This document shows, piece by piece, positions 1 to 59,590 of a stretch of DNA of 64,000 nt (its first letter is position 1; every line of letters starts with the position of its first letter). The position numbers were made by a program, and so were the translations under genes. The DNA is from an uncultured Acidimicrobiaceae bacterium. Its GTDB lineage: Bacteria; Actinomycetota; Acidimicrobiia; Acidimicrobiales; Bog-793. The notes beneath the pieces were generated by a model. It saw nothing but the letters and a program-made list of their open reading frames with translations, had not been told where the DNA came from and made no database searches. The stretch is from positions 125,176 through 189,175 of the forward strand of contig CAWECD010000017.1 of the NCBI GenBank assembly GCA_963807575.1. The letters run 5' to 3'.

Positions 1-1
1 C

Positions 2-508
2 AAGCGAGCCGCGCGCCGGTTGTCGGGTTCTCTCGCTCTGGAGTCCGGCGATGGCGACATCGAGCGTCTGACCGGAGGCGTCGACCTCATCGTCGACTGC
101 GTCGGCACCTCGGCATCCTTGGAGCAGTGCCTCGAGGTCGTGCGCCCCGGTGGCCGGATCGTGCTCGTCGGCATGCCAGGCGTGGTGAGAGTGGACCTGG
201 CCCCCCTCTGGCAACGCGAGATCGAGCTGCGCGGCGCCTACGCTTATGGGAGTGAGGACCGACCCGGAGGGCCACGGTCGACCTTCCAGCTCGCCTTGGA
301 GCTCGTGCGGGAGGCTCGTCTCGATCGTCTTGTCTCGGCGCGCTACCCCCTGGAACGTTACGAAGACGCCGTCGCGCACGCCGCCGCGGCGGGCCGTCGT
401 GGTGCGGTGAAGATCGTGTTCGACATGCGCAAGGCCGTACCCGGCCCGGACGCGCCCAACTCACGGAGCGCCAGGCCCGACTCGGCACCGACCAAGGAGG
501 CAATGTGA
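2..508 (+). CDS. Zn-dependent alcohol dehydrogenase (MDR) family protein, C-terminal part; 5' end lies outside window
   Basis: Frame open to window start; Rossmann-type motifs VDLIVDCVG and GGRIVLVGMPG typical of medium-chain dehydrogenase/reductase C-terminal domain. Confidence 0.6.
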   Translation, partial: KRAARRLSGSLALESGDGDIERLTGGVDLIVDCVGTSASLEQCLEVVRPGGRIVLVGMPGVVRVDLAPLWQREIELRGAYAYGSEDRPGGPRSTFQLALELVREARLDRLVSARYPLERYEDAVAHAAAAGRRGAVKIVFDMRKAVPGPDAPNSRSARPDSAPTKEAM

Positions 509-24090: not shown

Positions 24091-24167
24091 TGGCGCCCCC
24101 GGGAGGACTCGAACCTCCGACCGTCTGCTTAGAAGGCAGCTGCTCTATTCCGCTGAGCTACGGGGGC
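24091..24167 (-). tRNA. tRNA-Arg (anticodon TCT), CCA encoded
   Basis: Reverse complement GCCCCCGTAGCTCAGCGGAATAGAGCAGCTGCCTTCTAAGCAGACGGTCGGAGGTTCGAGTCCTCCCGGGGGCGCCA folds as cloverleaf with loop CTTCTAA. Confidence 0.85.
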
Positions 24168-24741: not shown

Positions 24742-24816
24742 ATGGTGGCCGTAGCTCAGTTGGTTAGAGCGCCAGGTTGTGGCCCTGGAGGTCGGGGGTT
24801 CAAGTCCCCTCGGTCA
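24742..24816 (+). tRNA. tRNA-His (anticodon GTG) with extra 5' G(-1)
   Basis: GGTGGCCGTAGCTCAGTTGGTTAGAGCGCCAGGTTGTGGCCCTGGAGGTCGGGGGTTCAAGTCCCCTCGGTCACC; anticodon loop TTGTGGC. Confidence 0.85.
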
Positions 24817-24867
24817 CCCTCTGTTGGTCGGTACGGTCGCGAGACCGACTAGGCTCACCGGCCGGAC

Positions 24868-24944
24868 GCGCCTCTAGCTCAATTTGGCAGAGCAACGGAC
24901 TCTTAATCCGCAGGTTCCGGGTTCAAGTCCCGGGGGGCGCACCA
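24868..24944 (+). tRNA. tRNA-Lys (anticodon CTT), CCA encoded
   Basis: GCGCCTCTAGCTCAATTTGGCAGAGCAACGGACTCTTAATCCGCAGGTTCCGGGTTCAAGTCCCGGGGGGCGCACCA; anticodon loop CTCTTAA. Confidence 0.85.
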
Positions 24945-25562: not shown

Positions 25563-25704
25563 CCGCGACTACAACTCGCGGCCAGGCTCTGCGCGCCGCC
25601 GTAGCTCCCTGAGTACCCGCGCGGTCTGACCGCAGGGGGGCGAGCCGGGAGGGCAGTCCGAGGGGGCGACCCGGCCGTCCGGCCGTAGGGCTGCTGGCCG
25701 CCTC

Positions 25705-25895
25705 TGCTACCCTTCGTTGCGACGGCTTCGGCCGTCTCGCTGCCTACAGGGGAAGTCCGGTCAAACTCCGGCGCTGGCCCGCAACCGTAGGCGAGGCTCG
25801 TCCTCGCAAGCCGGGAAACCTGTCGGTGGCGAGTCCTACTAACCGTCGAGGAAAGCGGGGACTGGGAACCGGTACGGCAGCGGTGTCCCAGCGCT
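25705..25895 (+). promoter_or_regulatory. cobalamin (B12) riboswitch-like leader
   Basis: AGGGGAAGTCCGGTCAAACTCCGGCGCTGGCCCGCAACCGTAGG and downstream GGGGACTGGGAACCGGTACGGCAGCGG match the conserved core (GGGAA / GGTG-AA-CC / CCCGC-ACTGT) and B12-box region (GCCACTG ... GGGAAGG) as I remember them; located in 5' leader of the operon starting at 25929. Confidence 0.7.
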
Positions 25896-25928
25896 TCTCC
25901 GGGGTCCAGTATCCGGGAGAGGACGTTC

Positions 25929-27056
25929 GTGTCACCATCCGCCCTTAGCACGGCCCGGACCTGCCTTGTGGCAGCCCTCCTCGGCCTCGGAGCCGCCACC
26001 GTGCCAGTTGCGTCGGCCGCCACCACTCAGCCGCCTCACGCGCCGCTTGGATTCCAAGCCCACGCCGCGACAGTGACGGCGGCGGCTTCCGGTGCAGGCT
26101 GGATCGCCCGCGACTTGAGCGCGAGTGGAGCGCTCGTCGACGCCGTCTCGCACAAGCCCAGCGTCGGCGACACGGCGGACGCAATCTTGGCCCTGGCCGC
26201 CGCCGGCGATGGTGCCAAGCAGGTCAAGGCCGCCACTTACTGGCTCGAGCAGCACTTCGGCTCCTACGTCTCTGCCAAGGGCGTCGACATCCCGGGAGGG
26301 CTCGGTCTCGTGGTCCTCGCAGCGGTTGCAGCGGGCGCGAACCCGGCGCGCTTCGGTGGCGAGGCCAGTTCGAACGACCTGGTTGCCAGACTCCAGGCAA
26401 CCGAGCAGTTGAAGGGCGCATACGCCGGAGTCTTCGGCGCCACCGGCTCGGCCAACGCGTTCAGCCAGTCGCTGGCAGTTCTCGCGCTCGTCTCGGCGAA
26501 GGGCTCTGCAAAAGCGATCCACCTCGCTCAGGCCTATCTGGCAAGCCGCCAGTGCACCGACGGGGGCTGGGAGTACTCCCTCACCACGCCTTGTGCCAAG
26601 CCGGACCCGAAGACATACGCCGGTCCCGACACCAACTCGACGGCACTGGCCGTCATGGCGATCGTGGCCGCCGGCGGGTACTTTGCCCATGGCCCACTGA
26701 CTTTCTTCAAGAGCTCACAAGAGGCCGATGGGTCGTTCGGGTACTACGGCGTGGCCGGGGACGGGCAGCAGGGCGATCCTGACTCGACAGGCGAGGTGGT
26801 CCAGGCCCTGATCGCCCTCGGCGCGCTGAACGACCCCCAGTTCATGCGCAACGGCACGACGCCCGAGCAGGCCCTCGGGCAATTCCAGTACGGCTGCCAA
26901 TCGCCGGTGAGCGAGCGCGGTGAGTTCTCCTACGACGGCGCCCCCAGTCAGTACGCCACATTGCAGGCCGTTCCCGCAGCAGCGGGCGTCGCGTTCCCCC
27001 TCGCCGCCCACAAGCTGTCTGCCGCCGAGCCACAGCTCAACTGCGGTGCGGGCTGA
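25929..27056 (+). CDS. secreted alpha/alpha-toroid protein with prenyltransferase/squalene-oxidase-type repeats
   Basis: GTG start after GGGAGAGG RBS; signal peptide LVAALLGLGAATVPVASA; repeats QCTDGGWEY and QEADGSFGYYG of the QxxDGGW class. Confidence 0.7.
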   Translation: MSPSALSTARTCLVAALLGLGAATVPVASAATTQPPHAPLGFQAHAATVTAAASGAGWIARDLSASGALVDAVSHKPSVGDTADAILALAAAGDGAKQVKAATYWLEQHFGSYVSAKGVDIPGGLGLVVLAAVAAGANPARFGGEASSNDLVARLQATEQLKGAYAGVFGATGSANAFSQSLAVLALVSAKGSAKAIHLAQAYLASRQCTDGGWEYSLTTPCAKPDPKTYAGPDTNSTALAVMAIVAAGGYFAHGPLTFFKSSQEADGSFGYYGVAGDGQQGDPDSTGEVVQALIALGALNDPQFMRNGTTPEQALGQFQYGCQSPVSERGEFSYDGAPSQYATLQAVPAAAGVAFPLAAHKLSAAEPQLNCGAG

Positions 27057-27084
27057 CTCGAGGCCGACCGGGGCTGTCACGCTG

Positions 27085-27810
27085 ATGGCGGTCGCGGTTG
27101 TCGCGGCCGCCATCAGCGCAGTTGTGTCGCCGTGTACGGTGGGGTCCGCGGCAGCGAGTGCGGCTCCGCGCTCGAAGGACCCCTCGCTGTCATGCACGGT
27201 TCCCGCACACGTCGCCGCCGACCAGATCGTCGTCCCTGTCGTCGCCGATTTCGGCGGGGTGAACGGCAGGGTCCTGGTCACTTGCGTTGCTGTCCAAGCC
27301 GGTGACAACGGCGAGCAAGTGTTGCAAGCCCAGGCCGCGCTCCTGCGATACCCATCTCCCCGTTATGCCCAGTCGGGCTCCGGCCTCCTGTGTGCCATTG
27401 ACGGCTACCCGACGAGCGGTTGCGGGAACCAATCGGGGCCCCATTACGCCTATTGGGCCTACTGGCACGGCGGGAAGCGATGGCAGTACGCGAGCCAAGG
27501 ACCCGGCGAGTGGAAGGTCTCCAAAGGCGACGTCGAGGGGTGGCGTTTCGAGCCGGCTGGCAGCGCGACACCGACCGATCCTCCTCCGCGGGCCGCTTCG
27601 AGCGCGACTGCGCTCGAGACACCCTCCACTGCCACTCCAAAGACGTCGTCGCCAACTTCGGGCGGACACGGGGCTGGCCCCGTCGGCTCATCGGGCGGCG
27701 GCAGGAAAGACACAGCCCCGATCCCGTTCATCCTCAGCGTCGCCTTTATCCTCCTGATCGGCGCCACCGCCCTGCTTCGCTCCCGGCGCGCGAACAGCCG
27801 TGCCGCTTAG
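27085..27810 (+). CDS. DUF4430-like (transcobalamin beta-domain-like) protein, signal peptide plus C-terminal TM anchor
   Basis: Core GPHYAYWAYWHGGKRWQYASQGPGEWKVSKGDVEGWRFE matches W-x-Y...G...GD-x-x-x-W/Y pattern of DUF4430; Pro/Thr/Ser linker then IPFILSVAFILLIGATALL anchor. Confidence 0.65.
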   Translation: MAVAVVAAAISAVVSPCTVGSAAASAAPRSKDPSLSCTVPAHVAADQIVVPVVADFGGVNGRVLVTCVAVQAGDNGEQVLQAQAALLRYPSPRYAQSGSGLLCAIDGYPTSGCGNQSGPHYAYWAYWHGGKRWQYASQGPGEWKVSKGDVEGWRFEPAGSATPTDPPPRAASSATALETPSTATPKTSSPTSGGHGAGPVGSSGGGRKDTAPIPFILSVAFILLIGATALLRSRRANSRAA

Positions 27811-28908
27811 ATGCTGAGAACCCGCCTCCAGCCGCTGCACCCGATCGCCTGGTGGTGCTGGGCCGGGGCCCTGGCCGTCGCCGCCAGCCGCACGACAGAC
27901 CCGCTCCTGCTCGGTCTCATCCTCGCAGTGGTGGCCTGGGTCGCGACCACACGGCGCGGCAACAGTCCCTGGGCACGCTCGTTCGGCACGCTCATGCGAC
28001 TTGGGCTAGTTGTCATCGTCATCCGAGTCGTCGTCCAAGTCCTGTTCGGTGACCGGGTGCCGGGCGCCACGTGGTTCAGCCTTCCCGAAATCCCACTGCC
28101 CTCATGGACCGCCGGTGTGACAATCGGAGGGCCCGTGACGGCTCAAGCAGTTATCGGGGCGTTCTGCCAGGGCCTGCAAATCGCAGTGATCCTGGCTTGT
28201 TTCGGCGCTGCCAACTCCCTGGCGAGCTCGTTCCGGCTCTTGCGTTGCGTGCCGGCGGGCCTGTACGAGGTGGCCGTGGCGGTGACCGTGGCGATCTCGT
28301 TCACGCCACAGGTCGTGGTATCAATTGCCCGAGTCCGAGACGCCCGGCGCTTGAGGGGCCGGGGCACGACCGGCCTGAAGGGTTGGCGTGGCCTGGCGGT
28401 GCCGGTTCTCGACGGCGCACTCGAGCGCTCGGTCGCATTGGCGGCTTCAATGGACGCCCGTGGGTTCGGGCGACGCTCCACTTCGCCAAGGCGCCGGCGG
28501 GCCACCGCGGCGGCGACACTCGGGGGTCTCGTCGGGCTTGGCATAGGACTGTTCGAGGTGCTCGACTCCGGCTCGGCTTCGGGAATCGGGCTTGCCGTCG
28601 TCCTGGTCGGAGGCGCCCTCGTCTTGGGGGGCCTCGTCGCCTCATCGCACGGCTCGAGGAGTCGTTACCGGCCCGATCGCTGGCATGTCGCCGAATGGCT
28701 CGTCGTGGCGGCGGGGCTCGCGGCCGTTGCCGGGATCGTGGCAGCAGGCAGCAACGACCCGAGCGCGCTCGTGCAGCCTCTTTATCCCCTCGCGCTGCCG
28801 CAGGGCCCGGCCGTTGCGCTGGCCGGCATCCTCGTCGCCACCGCGCCATCTGCCGTCGCACCGGTGCCGGCGACGGGGCACACCGAGCTCAAAGAGGCCT
28901 GGGCGTGA
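27811..28908 (+). CDS. energy-coupling factor transporter transmembrane protein EcfT (CbiQ family)
   Basis: Multi-TM protein with CbiQ-like layout and the Arg-rich coupling helices (VRDARRLRGRG). Confidence 0.8.
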   Translation: MLRTRLQPLHPIAWWCWAGALAVAASRTTDPLLLGLILAVVAWVATTRRGNSPWARSFGTLMRLGLVVIVIRVVVQVLFGDRVPGATWFSLPEIPLPSWTAGVTIGGPVTAQAVIGAFCQGLQIAVILACFGAANSLASSFRLLRCVPAGLYEVAVAVTVAISFTPQVVVSIARVRDARRLRGRGTTGLKGWRGLAVPVLDGALERSVALAASMDARGFGRRSTSPRRRRATAAATLGGLVGLGIGLFEVLDSGSASGIGLAVVLVGGALVLGGLVASSHGSRSRYRPDRWHVAEWLVVAAGLAAVAGIVAAGSNDPSALVQPLYPLALPQGPAVALAGILVATAPSAVAPVPATGHTELKEAWA

Positions 28909-30536
28909 TCGCCTTCGACCGCGTCACGGTCACCTACCCCGGTGCCGGCGCACCCGTCCTCGCGAACGTGAGCTTGGAGATCGAAGAAGGTCATCTTGCC
29001 CTCGTCATAGGCGCGACGGGTTCGGGGAAGTCGACGGTGCTGCGCTGCGTCAACGGCCTCGTCCCTCATTTCTCCGGCGGCCGGCTCAACGGGACCGTGA
29101 CCGTCGACGGGCGCAGCACCGAGCAGTACCGTCCCCGCGACCTGGCCGATGCCGTCGGTTACGTCGGCCAGGACCCTGATGCGACCTTCGTCGCCGACAC
29201 GGTCGAAGACGAGCTCGCATATGCCATGGAGAACCTCGGCGTGGACCCGGCGACGATGCGACGGCGGGTCGAAGACGTGCTGGACACCTTGAACCTGCAC
29301 GCACTGCGCCACCGGGCCATCACGACGCTATCGGGCGGTCAGCGCCAGCGCGTCGCCATCGGCGCCGCGTTCACCGCCGCGCCTCGCACCCTCGTGCTCG
29401 ACGAGCCGACGTCATCGCTCGACCCCGTCTCGGCCGAGGAAGTGCTGGCGTCACTCGCACGCCTCGTCCACGACCAGGGCACGACCATCCTCGTCGCCGA
29501 GCACCGTCTCGAGCGCATCGTGCAGTTCGCGGACATCGTCGTCGAGCTCGGTACCGCTCCTGGTGGGGTCCGTAGCGGCACGCCGGGCGCCGTCTTCGCC
29601 ACGGCGGAGCTGGCGCCGCCGGTCGTCCGTCTTGCCCGTGTCGCCGGATGGTCGCCCGTCCCGCTCTCGGTGCGAGACGCGCGCCGCCATGCCCCCGAGC
29701 TCCGGCACCGCCTCGAGCCAAGGACGCGCCCGCCGGCTCCCGCGTCCCGAGGTGACCGCGTCGCCAGGGTGAAGGGCCTCACCGCCTCCTACGGGCCAAT
29801 CCCGGCACTGGCGGAGGTGACCGTCGATCTCCACCAGGGTGAAGTGGTCGCAGTCATGGGAAGAAACGGAGCCGGGAAGTCCACCCTCCTCCACCATCTC
29901 GTCGGGCTTCGCCGCCCCCAGCGAGGCTCGGTGGAAGTCCTTGGCCGCGCGCCGGGTGAGCTCGCCGCGTCCGAGGCCATCCGGCTCGTCGGTCTCGTGC
30001 CCCAGGACCCCGGGGCGCTGCTGTGTGCCGAGACCGTGGCAGCCGAATGCCGAGACGGCGACCACGACGCCAGGCTTGCAGAGGGGACGACGCGAACGAT
30101 GCTCGAGTCCATCGTCGCCGGCATCTCCGACAAGACGCACCCCAAGGACCTCTCCGAAGGTCAGCGCCTCGCACTGGCGCTGGCGATAGTGCTGGCGCCC
30201 GAGCCACCGCTGCTGCTGCTCGACGAGCCCACGCGCGGGCTCGACTACGGGGCCAAGGAGCGCCTGTCCCAGCAGCTCCGCCAGCTCGCGGCCCGGGGTC
30301 ACTGCGTCGTCGTGGCGACCCATGACGTCGAGCTGGTGGCCGAAGTTGCCGACAGAGTGGTCGTGCTTGCCGACGGCGAGGTGATCACCGACGGCCCCGC
30401 CCGCTCGGTCGTCTGCCATTCGGCCGGTCTTGCCTCCCAGGTGGCCCGGGTCCTCGCCCCGGCGGAGTGGCTGACGGTCGAGGAGGTCGCCACGGCCCTT
30501 GGAGGGCGGCCGAACGGAGACGGGGCGTCCTCGTGA
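28905..30536 (+). CDS. fused tandem ECF ATPase (EcfA-EcfA')
   Basis: GTG start overlapping ecfT stop (GTGA); two complete ABC cassettes: Walker A GATGSGKST and GRNGAGKST, two LSGGQ/LSEGQ signatures, two Walker B (LVLDEPTS, LLLDEPTR). Confidence 0.85.
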   Translation: MIAFDRVTVTYPGAGAPVLANVSLEIEEGHLALVIGATGSGKSTVLRCVNGLVPHFSGGRLNGTVTVDGRSTEQYRPRDLADAVGYVGQDPDATFVADTVEDELAYAMENLGVDPATMRRRVEDVLDTLNLHALRHRAITTLSGGQRQRVAIGAAFTAAPRTLVLDEPTSSLDPVSAEEVLASLARLVHDQGTTILVAEHRLERIVQFADIVVELGTAPGGVRSGTPGAVFATAELAPPVVRLARVAGWSPVPLSVRDARRHAPELRHRLEPRTRPPAPASRGDRVARVKGLTASYGPIPALAEVTVDLHQGEVVAVMGRNGAGKSTLLHHLVGLRRPQRGSVEVLGRAPGELAASEAIRLVGLVPQDPGALLCAETVAAECRDGDHDARLAEGTTRTMLESIVAGISDKTHPKDLSEGQRLALALAIVLAPEPPLLLLDEPTRGLDYGAKERLSQQLRQLAARGHCVVVATHDVELVAEVADRVVVLADGEVITDGPARSVVCHSAGLASQVARVLAPAEWLTVEEVATALGGRPNGDGASS

Positions 30537-31369
30537 CTGCCACGCACGGCCGGCGGCCCGTCGGTCTCGACCGGTTCGGCTCTTTGGCCATCGCGATCGC
30601 GTCGATGATGGGAGCGGTCGCGTTCGCGTGGCCGCTCTTCATCCCGGCGCGCGCGTCACTGAACCAGGCGCACGCCGGCGATGCGCCCTGGATCGTCGCC
30701 GCGCTCCTGCCCCTGTTGCTCGTGGCCGTGCTCGGCGAGTTCAACTCTGGCGGCATGGACGCGAAGGGCGTCGCCATGCTCGGAATGCTCGGCGCCTGCG
30801 GCGCTGCGCTGCGGCTTCCCTCAGGTGGTGCCGCCGGATTCGAGCCCGTCTTCTTCCTGCTCTTCCCTGCCGGTTATGTGTTCGGGCGCCACTTCGGCTT
30901 CCTACTCGGTGCCCTTACCCTCTTCGCCTCGGCCCTCGTCACCGGTGGCGTCGGTCCCTGGTTGCCCTTCCAGATGATGGCGGCAGCGTGGATGGGTTAT
31001 GGCGCCGGCTGTCTTCCCCACTTACCGGGCCGCCGCGAGCTTGTCGTGCTGGCGGCGTATGCAGCCCTTGCGTGCCTTGCCTACGGGCTGCTGCTCAACT
31101 TGTGGTTCTGGCCCTTCGGCGCTGGGACCTCATCGACCCTCTCGTTCGAGCCCGGGGCGGCGCTGGCACACAACCTGGTCCGTTTCCTGCTGTTCGATGC
31201 CTCGACGTCGCTCGGGTTCGACCTGCCTCGGGCCGCGCTGAACGCCGGACTGCTCCTGGTCGCGGGGCGCCCTGTGCTGGCCGCTCTGCGCCGGGCCAGT
31301 CACCGTGCAGCCTTCGGTGCCCCAGTCGAAGTTGCGCCCCACGCACTGGATGCACCGACGAGCTCCTGA
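30533..31369 (+). CDS. putative ECF substrate-specific (S) component / integral membrane protein
   Basis: GTG start overlapping ATPase stop; ~6 hydrophobic helices, no soluble domain; position and size fit an S component but no family-level match I can state. Confidence 0.55.
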   Translation: MTATHGRRPVGLDRFGSLAIAIASMMGAVAFAWPLFIPARASLNQAHAGDAPWIVAALLPLLLVAVLGEFNSGGMDAKGVAMLGMLGACGAALRLPSGGAAGFEPVFFLLFPAGYVFGRHFGFLLGALTLFASALVTGGVGPWLPFQMMAAAWMGYGAGCLPHLPGRRELVVLAAYAALACLAYGLLLNLWFWPFGAGTSSTLSFEPGAALAHNLVRFLLFDASTSLGFDLPRAALNAGLLLVAGRPVLAALRRASHRAAFGAPVEVAPHALDAPTSS

Positions 31370-37564: not shown

Positions 37565-40500
37565 CTATGAGCAACCACTCGTCGAACCGCAGCTCGGGCA
37601 GGCATAACACGAGCCGGCACGCTGCATGACGTTGCCGCAGGCGTAGCAGAACGGGGCGTCCTTGCTCTCCATCTGTCCCGCCTGCCTCATCTGTTCGGTG
37701 TCACTCGGTCGACGCCTTGCCGCTGTGTCCCCGCCGGCGCCGAACCGCTCGCGATCGGTCCGCTCCGCGTCCCCGTTGTCGACATCCTCGAGCCCGGGCA
37801 ATGTCGGTTGCGTCCGTTCCCCCGTCGAGAGCACTCCGAGCTCGAGCCGCTCGTCAAAGCTCAAGTAGTCGAGGGCCAGCCGCCTGAAGATGTAGTCGAC
37901 GAGGCTCGAAGCCAGTCGCAGCTCCGGGTCGTCGGTGATCCCTGCCGGCTCGAACCGGAGGTTGGTGTACTTCCGGACGAAAGTCGACATCGGAACGCCG
38001 TGCTGGAGCCCGAGACTGACGGCGATGGAGAAAGCATCCATGACACCCGATAGGGTCGAACCCTGCTTGGAGACCTTCATGAAAACCTCACCGGGGCGGC
38101 CGTCTTCATACTCGCCCACTGTGACGTAGCCCTCGCAGTCGGCCACCCGGAAGGCGAAGGTATTGGAGCGACGTTTGCGGGGCAGCCGGGTTCGCGTCGT
38201 AGTGGCAGGGGCGATCACATGTCTCTGCTGCAGCGCACCCTCGAGCTCCGCGATGCGCTCGAGCAGCGCTCCCTCCCGCACGAGGCTTGCCCGTGAGGCT
38301 TCTGACGCGACATCGTCATCGTCGCCCAGGAGCGGTGCGCCGGCACCCGCCCACTTCGTCGTCGCCAGCGGCTGGGCAACCTTGCAGTTGTCGCGGTAGA
38401 CGGCGACCGCTTTCAGGCCCATTTGCCAGGCATCGATGTGCAGCTGCTCGACTTCTTCGACCGTAGCCTGCTCGGGAAGATTCACCGTCTTTGAAATGGC
38501 ACCCGAGATGAACGGCTGCGCCGCGGCCATCATCTTCACGTGACCCAGATAGTGGATCGTGTTGTCACCCATGGAACAGGCGAAGACCGGCAAATGCGCC
38601 GCCTTCAGACTGGGCGCCCCCAGGATGGTCTTGTGCTCGTCTATGTAGGCGACAATCTCGTCGATCTCGTCAGCACTGTAGCCAAGCCGCTTCAACGCGC
38701 GGGGAACGGTCTGATTGACGATCGACATCGTGCCGCCACCGACGAGCTTCTTCGTCTTCACAAGTCCAAGATCAGGCTCGATCCCCGTCGTATCGCAGTC
38801 CATGAGGAACGAGATCGTTCCCGTAGGCGCCAGCACCGTCGCCTGGGCATTGCGCACGCCATAGGCCTCGGCTAGATCGACCGCGGTGTCCCAGGCCTCC
38901 TGCGCCGCGCAGAGAAGCTCGGTCGAGACCTGTTCCTCGTCGATCTTCGCCACCTCGACGCGGTGCATCCGCAGTACGTCCAGCATCGGGCCCGCGTTCT
39001 CATGGAAGCCGGCGAACGGCCCCATTCTCGCTGCCGTGCGGGCCGAGGTCGCGTACGCCGCGCCCGTCATGAGAGCCGTGATCGTCGCCGCGATGGCCCG
39101 GCCCTCGTCCGAGTCGTAGGGCACGCCCTGAGCCATGAGCAGCGCCCCGAGGTTTGCGTAACCGAGGCCCAGCTCTCGGAACCGGCGCGTTGTGTCAGCG
39201 ATCTTCGCCGTCGGGTAGTCGGCGTTGCCGACAAGGATCTCCTGAGCCGTGAACACGATGGTGACGGCCGCTTCGAACCCCTTGGCGTCGAAGGTGTCGT
39301 CGTCGTTCAAGAAGCGCATGAGGTTGAGGCTGGCGAGGTTGCAGCTGCTGTTGTCGAGGTGAACATACTCAGAGCAAGGGTTGCTGGCCGTGATCCGGCC
39401 TGTGTTGGGCGCCGTGTGCCACTTGTTGATGGTCGTGTCGAACTGGATGCCGGGGTCCGCGCACTCCCACGCGGCCTCTGCGATCTGACGGAACAGGCCA
39501 CGCGCCCTGAGAGTCTCGATGACCTCGCCCGAAGTCCGGCTGATGAGATCCCAGTCGGCGTCGTCGAGCACTGCCCGCATGAACTCGTCTGTCAGCCGGA
39601 CCGAGTTGTTGGCGTTCTGGTACTGAACGGACTGGCTGTCCCTGCCATCCAGGTCCATATCGAAGCCGGCCTGTGCCAACACACGCGCCTTGCGCTCCTC
39701 ACGGGCCTTGCACCAGATGAACTCTTGGATGTCCGGGTGGTCGGCATCCAGGATCACCATCTTTGCCGCGCGACGCGTCTTGCCGCCGGACTTGATCGTT
39801 CCTGCAGAGGCGTCCGCCCCGCGCATGAAGCTCACGGGCCCCGAGGCCGTCCCGCCCCCGTGAAGCAGCTCCCGGGAAGACCGGATGTTCGAAAGGTTGA
39901 CTCCCGCGCCAGACCCACCTTTGAAGATCGTGCCCTCCTCGACGTACCAATTGAGAATGGAGGCCATCGAGTCCTCGACGCCCAGGATGAAGCAGTTGTG
40001 AACACGCAGACCGGAGCTCAGGTACTCGCCGCTCTCGGTCTGGATGTCAAAGACGTCCATCTCGCCGACGTCCTCGATCCCTGTGATGTCCAGTCGCCCG
40101 GAGATCTCCCCTTCACAAGAGGAATCGGTCCGGTGCCAGCTCAGCTGGTCCCCCACCTGCAGCTCAGCGGCGGGAACGAACCGGCCGGTATCTTCGCCGC
40201 TCGCCCGCCACACGAGATGATCAGCGGTGACGTCGAGCTGGTGCCCGGCCTTGGTCGTAACGCGCAGCACGTGCTTGCGCCCGTTGGCCTTGACCGCCAC
40301 GATGCGGGTCAGACCATCGGCGTCGAACACCTTCTGACCGACGGCTTCGTCCTCGACGAGGCGCCCGATCGGGACAGGGCCGCCAGGAGTCGAGACCAGC
40401 GCGTCATAGGGTTGGCACGCGGCAGCCTGCTGCGGCACACCTTCAACGCCGATGTTGAACCAGACCGGTGAGTTGAACGCCGCCTTCTGCTGCACGACGA

Positions 40501-40894
40501 GGTGCTTGAGCTCGTCGCTGAAGATGGCCGCCTCGGCCGAATCAACGAAATACCCGTCTTTCAAGCCCCATGCCGTGATCGTGTCCACGACACGGTCGAC
40601 AATCTGCCGCAGCGAGTGTTCCCGTCCCGGCATGCCGACGGTACCTCGGAAGTACTTCTGAGCGAGGATGTTGGTCGCATTCAGGCTCCAGGTCGAAGGC
40701 ACCTCGACACCGGGCTGTTCGAACGCGACAGCCCCGGTGCGGTAGTCGCTGATGCGGGAGTCACGGAGCTCCCAGACGACCTCGCCGTAGGGATGGCGGG
40801 ACTCCGTGGTGAAGTGTCGTCGGATGCCAATTCCGAGGCGCTCTCCTGCAACGGCCATTGAACGGTGCCCTCCTTGGCGGAACCTGTCCACCAC
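37565..40894 (-). CDS. nrdJ: class II (adenosylcobalamin-dependent) ribonucleotide reductase NrdJ, intein-containing, C-terminal zinc ribbon
   Basis: FNSPVWFN and active-site ...AAAC|FILGVED split by intein; long actinobacterial NrdJ form; C-terminal CYACGN...CYACPSCG; true start may be the ATG 12 codons in (MAVAGERLG). Confidence 0.9.
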   Translation of the reverse strand: MVDRFRQGGHRSMAVAGERLGIGIRRHFTTESRHPYGEVVWELRDSRISDYRTGAVAFEQPGVEVPSTWSLNATNILAQKYFRGTVGMPGREHSLRQIVDRVVDTITAWGLKDGYFVDSAEAAIFSDELKHLVVQQKAAFNSPVWFNIGVEGVPQQAAACQPYDALVSTPGGPVPIGRLVEDEAVGQKVFDADGLTRIVAVKANGRKHVLRVTTKAGHQLDVTADHLVWRASGEDTGRFVPAAELQVGDQLSWHRTDSSCEGEISGRLDITGIEDVGEMDVFDIQTESGEYLSSGLRVHNCFILGVEDSMASILNWYVEEGTIFKGGSGAGVNLSNIRSSRELLHGGGTASGPVSFMRGADASAGTIKSGGKTRRAAKMVILDADHPDIQEFIWCKAREERKARVLAQAGFDMDLDGRDSQSVQYQNANNSVRLTDEFMRAVLDDADWDLISRTSGEVIETLRARGLFRQIAEAAWECADPGIQFDTTINKWHTAPNTGRITASNPCSEYVHLDNSSCNLASLNLMRFLNDDDTFDAKGFEAAVTIVFTAQEILVGNADYPTAKIADTTRRFRELGLGYANLGALLMAQGVPYDSDEGRAIAATITALMTGAAYATSARTAARMGPFAGFHENAGPMLDVLRMHRVEVAKIDEEQVSTELLCAAQEAWDTAVDLAEAYGVRNAQATVLAPTGTISFLMDCDTTGIEPDLGLVKTKKLVGGGTMSIVNQTVPRALKRLGYSADEIDEIVAYIDEHKTILGAPSLKAAHLPVFACSMGDNTIHYLGHVKMMAAAQPFISGAISKTVNLPEQATVEEVEQLHIDAWQMGLKAVAVYRDNCKVAQPLATTKWAGAGAPLLGDDDDVASEASRASLVREGALLERIAELEGALQQRHVIAPATTTRTRLPRKRRSNTFAFRVADCEGYVTVGEYEDGRPGEVFMKVSKQGSTLSGVMDAFSIAVSLGLQHGVPMSTFVRKYTNLRFEPAGITDDPELRLASSLVDYIFRRLALDYLSFDERLELGVLSTGERTQPTLPGLEDVDNGDAERTDRERFGAGGDTAARRRPSDTEQMRQAGQMESKDAPFCYACGNVMQRAGSCYACPSCGSTSGCS
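39995..40417 (-). other. 141-aa mini-intein inside nrdJ (no homing-endonuclease domain)
   Basis: Starts with Cys (CQPYDALVSTPGGPVPIG, block A), TxxH block B (VTTKAGHQL), ends ...GLRVHN followed by Cys+1 (CFILG); removal reconstitutes the conserved RNR active-site AACF motif. Confidence 0.75.
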
Positions 40895-40933: not shown

Positions 40934-40949
40934 CCACAATATCTTGTGG
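40934..40949. promoter_or_regulatory. NrdR box upstream of nrdJ
   Basis: CCACAATATCTTGTGG, 16-bp palindrome matching acaCwAtATaTwGtgt consensus; about 40 bp 5' of nrdJ ORF start. Confidence 0.55.
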
Positions 40950-41110
40950 TGCAGCAGAATATGACTACCAGATAGGTGGCTAATTACAACACCGTAGTTC
41001 CGGCCGTGTCAACGGACGGCCGCGTCGGTCATCCCTGCTCAGAGACCGCTCGCGAAGGTTCCCGTTTGCTTGCTCACGCAAAGGGCGCGCCCTCCACACC
41101 CTAACGAGGT

Positions 41111-59238: not shown

Positions 59239-59590
<352 letters not shown>

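Follow-up and report, generated by a model that had tools for sequence, protein, structure and literature searches.

Ribonucleotide reductase (RNR) is the second commonest host of inteins in bacteria, with 211 inteins on record that include examples from Actinobacteria (PMC4760082). Inteins in nrdJ, the gene for the B12-dependent enzyme, have been described from phage and from metagenomes (PMC3653736). The intein described in this study interrupts an nrdJ gene on the minus strand of a 64,000-nucleotide (nt) stretch of DNA from an uncultured Acidimicrobiaceae bacterium; the whole of this stretch is referred to as the window, and the labels P and L denote proteins and loci of relatives. The NrdJ-1 split intein, which stems from metagenomes and is used as a protein-engineering tool, has the same host enzyme family and the same Cys1 as the window intein, but in nature it consists of two separate polypeptides, and its +1 residue is Ser (PMC11168065). 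The window intein is contiguous and is followed by Cys+1, and hence is an allele other than NrdJ-1. NrdJ-1 also presumably sits at another site, beside the thiyl-radical cysteine. The RNR 'RIR1' series, e.g. Pyrococcus abyssi RIR1-1..3, shares the host class, RNR, with the window intein; a named InBase or RIR1 insertion site for the window allele was not found in literature searches, in which the comparison was made without reference sequences.

Inteins with a LAGLIDADG endonuclease occur at the very same NrdJ site in, for example, P0087, P0089, L008 and L009. They share the insertion point PQQ[AVG][AS]A/C...HN/CFIL and show 81–84% identity to the window intein in the splicing domain, with the same catalytic residues, but they keep about 216 amino acids (aa) of PF14528 between EGEIS and KRLEI that the window allele has lost. 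The inteins Npu DnaB (4o1r), Ssp DnaB mini (1mi8), Mtu RecA (2in0) and Mxe GyrA (1am2) share the HINT fold with a predicted model of the window intein (TM 0.68–0.71), and all have Cys1, the TxxH of block B and the terminal His-Asn as it does. They reside in other host proteins and are 19–23% identical to the window intein, and several of the four are engineered deletions, whereas the window mini-intein is natural. The Hedgehog Hint domain and the bacterial intein-like (BIL) domains also have the same fold (1at0, E 1.4e-6). They do not ligate their flanks at a conserved enzyme site, however, whereas the window intein has the full splice-junction residues and a conserved +1 nucleophile.

The insert occupies residues 160–300 of an open reading frame (ORF) at 37565..40894 on the minus strand, corresponding to 39995..40417. 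It is 141 aa long and in frame; it begins with CQPYDALVSTPGG, ends with GLRVHN and is followed by Cys301 of CFILGVED. Comparison with intein-free NrdJ homologues finds exactly these 141 residues missing from the aligned orthologues P0094, P0098 and P0100 (953–956 aa), which are 93–95% identical in the flanks, and this speaks against a normal NrdJ insertion. The original prediction, made from the letters of the window, had given the coordinates and the terminal strings exactly, including the VHN end followed by Cys. Its expectation that excision would fuse ...PQQAAA to CFILGVED agrees with the sequence of the three intein-free orthologues, which read ...GVPQQAAA-CFILGVED. A search with intein profile hidden Markov models (HMMs), which had been suggested along with the prediction, also recognises the insert: TIGR01445, the model for the N-terminal splicing region of inteins, matches residues 1–69 with 42.2 bits (cut-off 24.5, E 1.2e-10).

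The predicted fold leads to the same assignment. An AlphaFold2 model of the insert, built on 16 sequences, has a mean pLDDT of 78. When this predicted model was compared with the PDB by Foldseek, the top 50 matches were all inteins or Hedgehog Hint domains, the best being Npu DnaB 4o1r (E 3.4e-7, TM 0.68), with the Ssp DnaB mini-intein, Mtu RecA, gp41-1 and Mxe GyrA among the other leading matches. A PDB sequence search with the intein gave weak matches only (DnaE intein, E 4.8e-4). No endonuclease family was found by Pfam in the 141 aa, and PF14528 is present in the relatives at the same site. Because no endonuclease domain lies between blocks B and F, the insert is a mini-intein, which is also what had been predicted. 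Profile HMM, predicted fold, motifs and absence from close orthologues are four independent lines that agree, far outside what chance would give: the insert is a class 1 mini-intein of the HINT superfamily. We consider it very probable that this is a functional mini-intein, which splices itself out of NrdJ and descends from a LAGLIDADG intein through in-frame loss; the mini-intein is real and, judged from the sequences, almost certainly functional. In substance the original prediction was right.

The host ORF is uninterrupted over 1109 aa from a mechanical GTG start at 40894. It matches NCBIfam NF005122 (vitamin B12-dependent RNR) with 1387 bits (cut-off 859) and TIGR02504 (NrdJ_Z) with 567 bits (cut-off 400), and contains the Pfam domains Ribonuc_red_2_N, Ribonuc_red_lgC (the RNR barrel) and TSCPD. 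Its best solved relatives are the B12-dependent RNRs 7b9q and 1xje, the latter from Thermotoga maritima (Tm). By these matches the ORF is assigned to the class II (B12-dependent) ribonucleotide reductase NrdJ, and the NF005122 score bears out the earlier naming of the host as nrdJ; dependence of the window enzyme on adenosylcobalamin would follow from family membership only. The real start of the gene is likely the ATG at 40856–40858, ORF residue 13 and 12 codons downstream of the GTG, because the homologues start there, a public gene call does so too and a ribosome-binding site (RBS), AAGGAGG at 40869–40875, lies ahead of it. In the alignment 10 of the 10 closest homologues begin with MAVAGERLGIGI, MAVAGERL being the homologue start, and a protein identical over the 1097 aa is the gene call in public assemblies. 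With this likely ATG, the coding sequence of the precursor is 37565..40858 on the minus strand (1097 aa and stop), and the intein would therefore be residues 148–288 of the 1097-aa protein.

The splicing motifs were assessed for invariance over 75 alleles, that is, the window allele and 74 uninterrupted relatives from the genomes of other species. All parts of the precursor lie on the minus strand. The N-extein (40418..40858), delimited by alignment with the intein-free orthologues, has 147 aa and ends ...GVPQQAAA. The class 1 mini-intein itself (39995..40417; TIGR01445 and predicted HINT fold) runs from Cys1 to His140-Asn141. It opens with block A, CQPYDALVSTPGG, at 40379..40417, in which the Cys1 codon is 40415–40417 and C1, Q2, P3 and Y4 are invariant in the 75 alleles. 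Block B, GHQLDVTADHLVW, at 40208..40246 holds T64 and H67 of the TxxH motif (T64-A-D-H67) in LDVTADHLVW. The string VTTKAGHQL offered as block B in the prediction is the strand before TxxH, about 8 residues off the real block B, LDVTADHLVW. Block F, DVFDIQTESGEYLS, at 40016..40057 includes Asp124, and block G, SGLRVHN, at 39995..40015 supplies the penultimate His140 and the terminal Asn141. The C-extein (37565..39994) has 809 aa and a stop and begins with the +1 Cys, codon 39992–39994. The residues C1, T64, D66, H67, D124, H140 and N141 are invariant over the 75 alleles, and Cys follows every allele. A class 3 intein, which would lack the N-terminal nucleophile and have a Trp-Cys-Thr triplet with Cys at position 4 of block F, is ruled out by the presence of Cys1 and by Asp124 at that position. 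The putative scar of endonuclease loss, EGEIS-GR-LDI, is at 40085..40114, the site of the LAGLIDADG domain of about 216 aa in full-length relatives. At intein residue 101 (window 40115–40117) the codon is TGT for Cys, whereas close relatives have Gly (GGT/GGC in L001, L008 and L009); this extra, unconserved Cys101 falls within the linker that remains after the endonuclease deletion and is poorly ordered in the predicted model.

The conceptually spliced junction aligns to T. maritima NrdJ (1xje) without gaps, with QAAA-C-FILGVEDS over LSA-C134-FVVPVGDS. Likewise, NPC507SE falls over Tm NPC322GE and SSC518NLAS over EAC333NLGS; in ORF numbering, C301, N505, C507, E509 and C518 align to Tm C134, N320, C322, E324 and C333. 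In RNR biochemistry, Tm C322 (E. coli C439) is established as the thiyl-radical cysteine, and the redox pair that reduces the substrate consists of Tm C134 (E. coli C225) and Tm C333 (E. coli C462). Through these equivalences the thiyl-radical Cys codon of the window gene (in NPCSE) is placed at 39374–39376 by C322 and the second redox Cys codon at 39341–39343 by C333. Read from this alignment, the +1 nucleophile of the intein is the redox-pair cysteine of the enzyme, the equivalent of Tm C134, and not the thiyl-radical Cys at ORF residue 507. The insertion had been predicted to lie at the 'catalytic cysteine', which is right in that the residue is an active-site cysteine of the redox pair by alignment to Tm C134, but wrong if the thiyl-radical cysteine is meant. 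The unspliced precursor would be expected to be inactive, because the beta-strand with the active-site cysteine is interrupted by the intein.

Splicing is proposed to proceed by the canonical class 1 pathway, in which the 1097-aa precursor would be translated whole and the 141-aa HINT domain would then excise itself. In the first step, an N-S acyl shift at Cys1, aided by Thr64 and His67 of block B, would produce a thioester at Ala-Cys1. Trans-thioesterification onto the +1 Cys would follow as the second step, and cyclisation of Asn141, aided by His140 and by Asp124 of block F, as the third. An S-N shift would finally give the Ala-Cys peptide bond. The residues for all four steps are present and conserved; the chemistry is what they would be expected to perform. 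The products would be a 956-aa NrdJ, with the junction peptide ...GVPQQAAACFILGVEDSMASILNWYVEEGTIFK, and a free intein of about 15 kDa. The significance of the intein lies chiefly in annotation: in public records the protein is a plain 1097-aa B12-dependent reductase with RNR domains only, while the mature enzyme should be 956 aa.

Relatives of the intein were collected from one genome per species. At least 296 genomes encode a relative, and the best 80, looked at by taxonomy, are all Actinomycetota. The nearest are Acidimicrobiaceae metagenome-assembled genomes (L001, 91% identity), and other carriers belong to Streptosporangiaceae, Geodermatophilaceae, Frankiales, Pseudonocardiaceae, Fodinicola feengrottensis and Spirillospora albida. 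The insertion site is identical in 74 of 74 parsable alleles, from at least 74 other Actinomycetota species genomes. The window intein belongs to a large family that occupies one NrdJ site in Actinomycetota and that, although sequenced before, is for the most part unannotated. Mini-inteins of 135–149 aa make up 46 of the 75 alleles, the window included, and full-length alleles of 357–362 aa make up 27; the remaining two, L063 and L069, are intermediate with 280 and 282 aa. L063 and L069 keep the first LAGLIDADG motif and look like partly deleted endonuclease domains, between the full-length and the mini forms. The full-length alleles carry the LAGLIDADG domain PF14528, with the two LAGLIDADG-like motifs LAGWLQSDG and LRSLFQAEG, between ...EGEIS and KRLEI....

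The window allele, ...SSCEGEIS-GR-LDITGIED..., is the full-length form minus about 216 residues, and its deletion breakpoint is common to L001, one close relative. In the full-length L009 the left edge of the endonuclease reads TCG CCG CGC TGG and the right edge TCG AAG CGC CTG, and the codons at the deletion junction are TCC GGG CGA CTG in the window and TCC GAG CGA CTG in L001. These edge sequences fit an in-frame deletion between short direct repeats, by which a LAGLIDADG-bearing intein at the same site may have lost about 216 aa to become the window allele. In a neighbour-joining (NJ) tree of the splicing-domain columns the window allele is nested among the 357-aa alleles L009 and L008. 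By the alignment and the NJ tree, other mini-inteins have different breakpoints and different nearest neighbours, which points to several independent losses of the endonuclease, as far as an unsupported tree allows. Close relatives include alleles that are empty, mini, partial and full-length, as would be expected from the intein homing cycle, and such a mixture speaks against a need of the host for the intein. Once the endonuclease is gone, homing would no longer be possible and the intein would persist through the need to splice, being kept because a mutation that impairs splicing would damage the reductase.

In comparison with L001, the intein has a ratio of nonsynonymous to synonymous substitutions (dN/dS, Nei-Gojobori) of 0.22 and the exteins have one of 0.08. 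Purifying selection acts on the splicing domain, though less strongly than on the enzyme. Support for autocatalytic splicing comes here from one source, this purifying selection with dN/dS 0.22, and is indirect. The composition of the intein is host-like, with a GC content of 0.655 against 0.640 in the exteins and a third-position GC content (GC3) of 0.81 against 0.82; no foreign base-composition signature is seen in the intein. By tblastn, none of 50,697 phage records matched the intein, so that there is no evidence for a phage vector.

Several results weigh against the reading of a functional class 1 mini-intein derived from a LAGLIDADG intein. No match of the NCBIfam C-terminal intein model was reported on the insert, and the two Pfam models that hit it, over the stretch also matched by TIGR01445, remain below threshold (PF14890 Intein_splicing, 21.3 bits with gathering 35.8; PF01079 Hint, 18.7 bits with gathering 29.7). 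The AlphaFold2 model is weak, and hence unreliable, at linker residues 97–104 and over the final 7 residues, but only there. The direct-repeat deletion is drawn from present-day relatives and not from the true ancestor, and the NJ tree carries no support values.

Alternatively, the intein could serve the host as a redox-sensitive gate on dNTP synthesis, in which a Cys1-Cys+1 disulfide traps the inactive NrdJ precursor under oxidative stress. Redox-trapped inteins are known in other proteins. Both junction nucleophiles are indeed Cys, and the +1 Cys is itself a redox-active residue of the RNR; the purifying selection on the intein and the extra Cys at intein position 101, which is Gly in relatives, can also be cited for such a role. 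Nevertheless, Cys101 is unconserved, and the need to splice in a probably essential enzyme is quite enough to account for the purifying selection. The intein is moreover absent from orthologues up to 95% identical, and the scatter of mini, partial and full-length alleles through the tree is that of a selfish element in its homing cycle and not of a required regulator. None of the observations requires a regulatory gate, and we regard it as improbable.

Still harder to sustain is the view that the insert is a decayed, splicing-dead remnant and that this copy of nrdJ is inactive or on the way to a pseudogene, to which we give very little credence. The endonuclease has been lost, and several homologous public gene calls are truncated or frameshifted inside the intein, as decay would have it. 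However, the window ORF is intact over 1097 codons with all catalytic residues of the intein and of the RNR in place, dN/dS is low in the intein (0.22) and in the exteins (0.08), and a conserved operator-like palindrome and the RBS are retained. The tails of the truncated calls are out of frame, which points to errors in assembly or in gene calling. That the 141 aa are a lineage-specific structural insertion which stays in the mature NrdJ is hardly credible, for although NrdJ proteins differ widely in length and insertions do occur in them, this one has a predicted HINT fold and every intein motif, breaks the beta-strand bearing the active-site cysteine and is absent from near-identical orthologues.

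When the intein alone was used as the query, all homologues returned were proteins of at most 246 aa, many of which consist of the NrdJ N-terminal domain and 50–77% of the intein. A naturally split intein was considered for such cases and rejected, since the window ORF is single, the short homologues end out of frame and intact full-length homologues are abundant. Among public records of homologous nrdJ genes, many gene calls (P0012, P0034, P0046, P0056 and others) stop inside the intein, several with tails out of frame and some on contigs of 0.2–0.7 Mb. Such truncated calls are probably frameshift errors of assembly, and not split genes.

The functional mini-intein proposed here leaves existing knowledge of inteins and RNRs unchanged. 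The 75 alleles, together with the empty ones in close relatives, nevertheless form a natural series for the study of the homing cycle in which the deletion breakpoints can be mapped. As a compact natural mini-intein with Cys1 and Cys+1, the window intein might also be worth trying in protein engineering.

The most unusual thing seen in this study is found outside the window. Three 'orphan' ORFs of 155–187 aa encode NrdJ-type mini-inteins at L081:4001-4468, L082:362-838 and L083:143-706 (P0015, P0018 and P0014). They keep the native nrdJ start (MTET/MTDT), an RBS and an upstream NrdR-box-like site, but about 150 aa of the N-extein are gone, as is everything of the C-extein after the +1 Cys. Each ORF ends with RVHD/C, in which Asp replaces the terminal Asn. 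The ORF of L081 lies between a lexA/LysM pair and an oxidoreductase gene, with no other nrdJ remnant there. Over the intein codons, the pairwise dN/dS of the orphan ORFs is 0.14–0.29 at a dS of 0.25–0.35. Because of these ratios the stand-alone Hint ORFs look to be under selection, and each may be a relic or a domesticated protein.

Upstream of the window nrdJ, a NrdR-box-like palindrome, CCACAAGATATTGTGG, lies at 40934..40949, about 75 nt from the ATG, and a weaker candidate, CCACCTATCTGGTAGT, at 40964–40979. At up to 3 mismatches, CCACAAGATATTGTGG is the sole match to the NrdR consensus ACACWATATATWGTGT in the 64-kb window, where 0.01 matches are expected by chance. Of 59 related loci, 9 show the palindrome conserved upstream of nrdJ; the corresponding figure for control regions is 0 of 59. 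No NrdR-like protein was found when the six frames of the window were searched with a regular expression (CPxC...DSR). At the other end of the gene, window 37568–37650 encodes a Cys-rich C-terminal tail, FCYACGNVMQRAGSCYACPSCGSTSGCS, which follows the TSCPD domain and is invariant in the closest homologues; it is similar to the zinc-finger-like C-terminal tail known for many class II RNRs.

The original prediction had also linked the B12-dependent reductase to a B12-uptake operon in the window. An ECF-type transporter locus is present at 25703–31369 (+), headed by a cobalamin riboswitch (RF00174, 25703–25841 (+), 44.8 bits by Rfam). On the same strand downstream of the riboswitch are genes for SCO2321- and SCO2322-family proteins, a CbiQ-like T component, a fused double ECF/CbiO-type ATPase and an S-component-like protein, and the locus probably encodes a B12-regulated uptake system for corrinoid or cobalt. 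The predicted link to nrdJ is circumstantial only: the two loci have opposite orientations, with unrelated genes in the roughly 6 kb that separate them. A connection is plausible and coherent, yet thematic and not structural. Elsewhere in the window there are a tmRNA gene at 59239–59590 (+), found with 131 bits, and three tRNA genes at 24094–24167 (-), 24745–24818 (+) and 24868–24941 (+).

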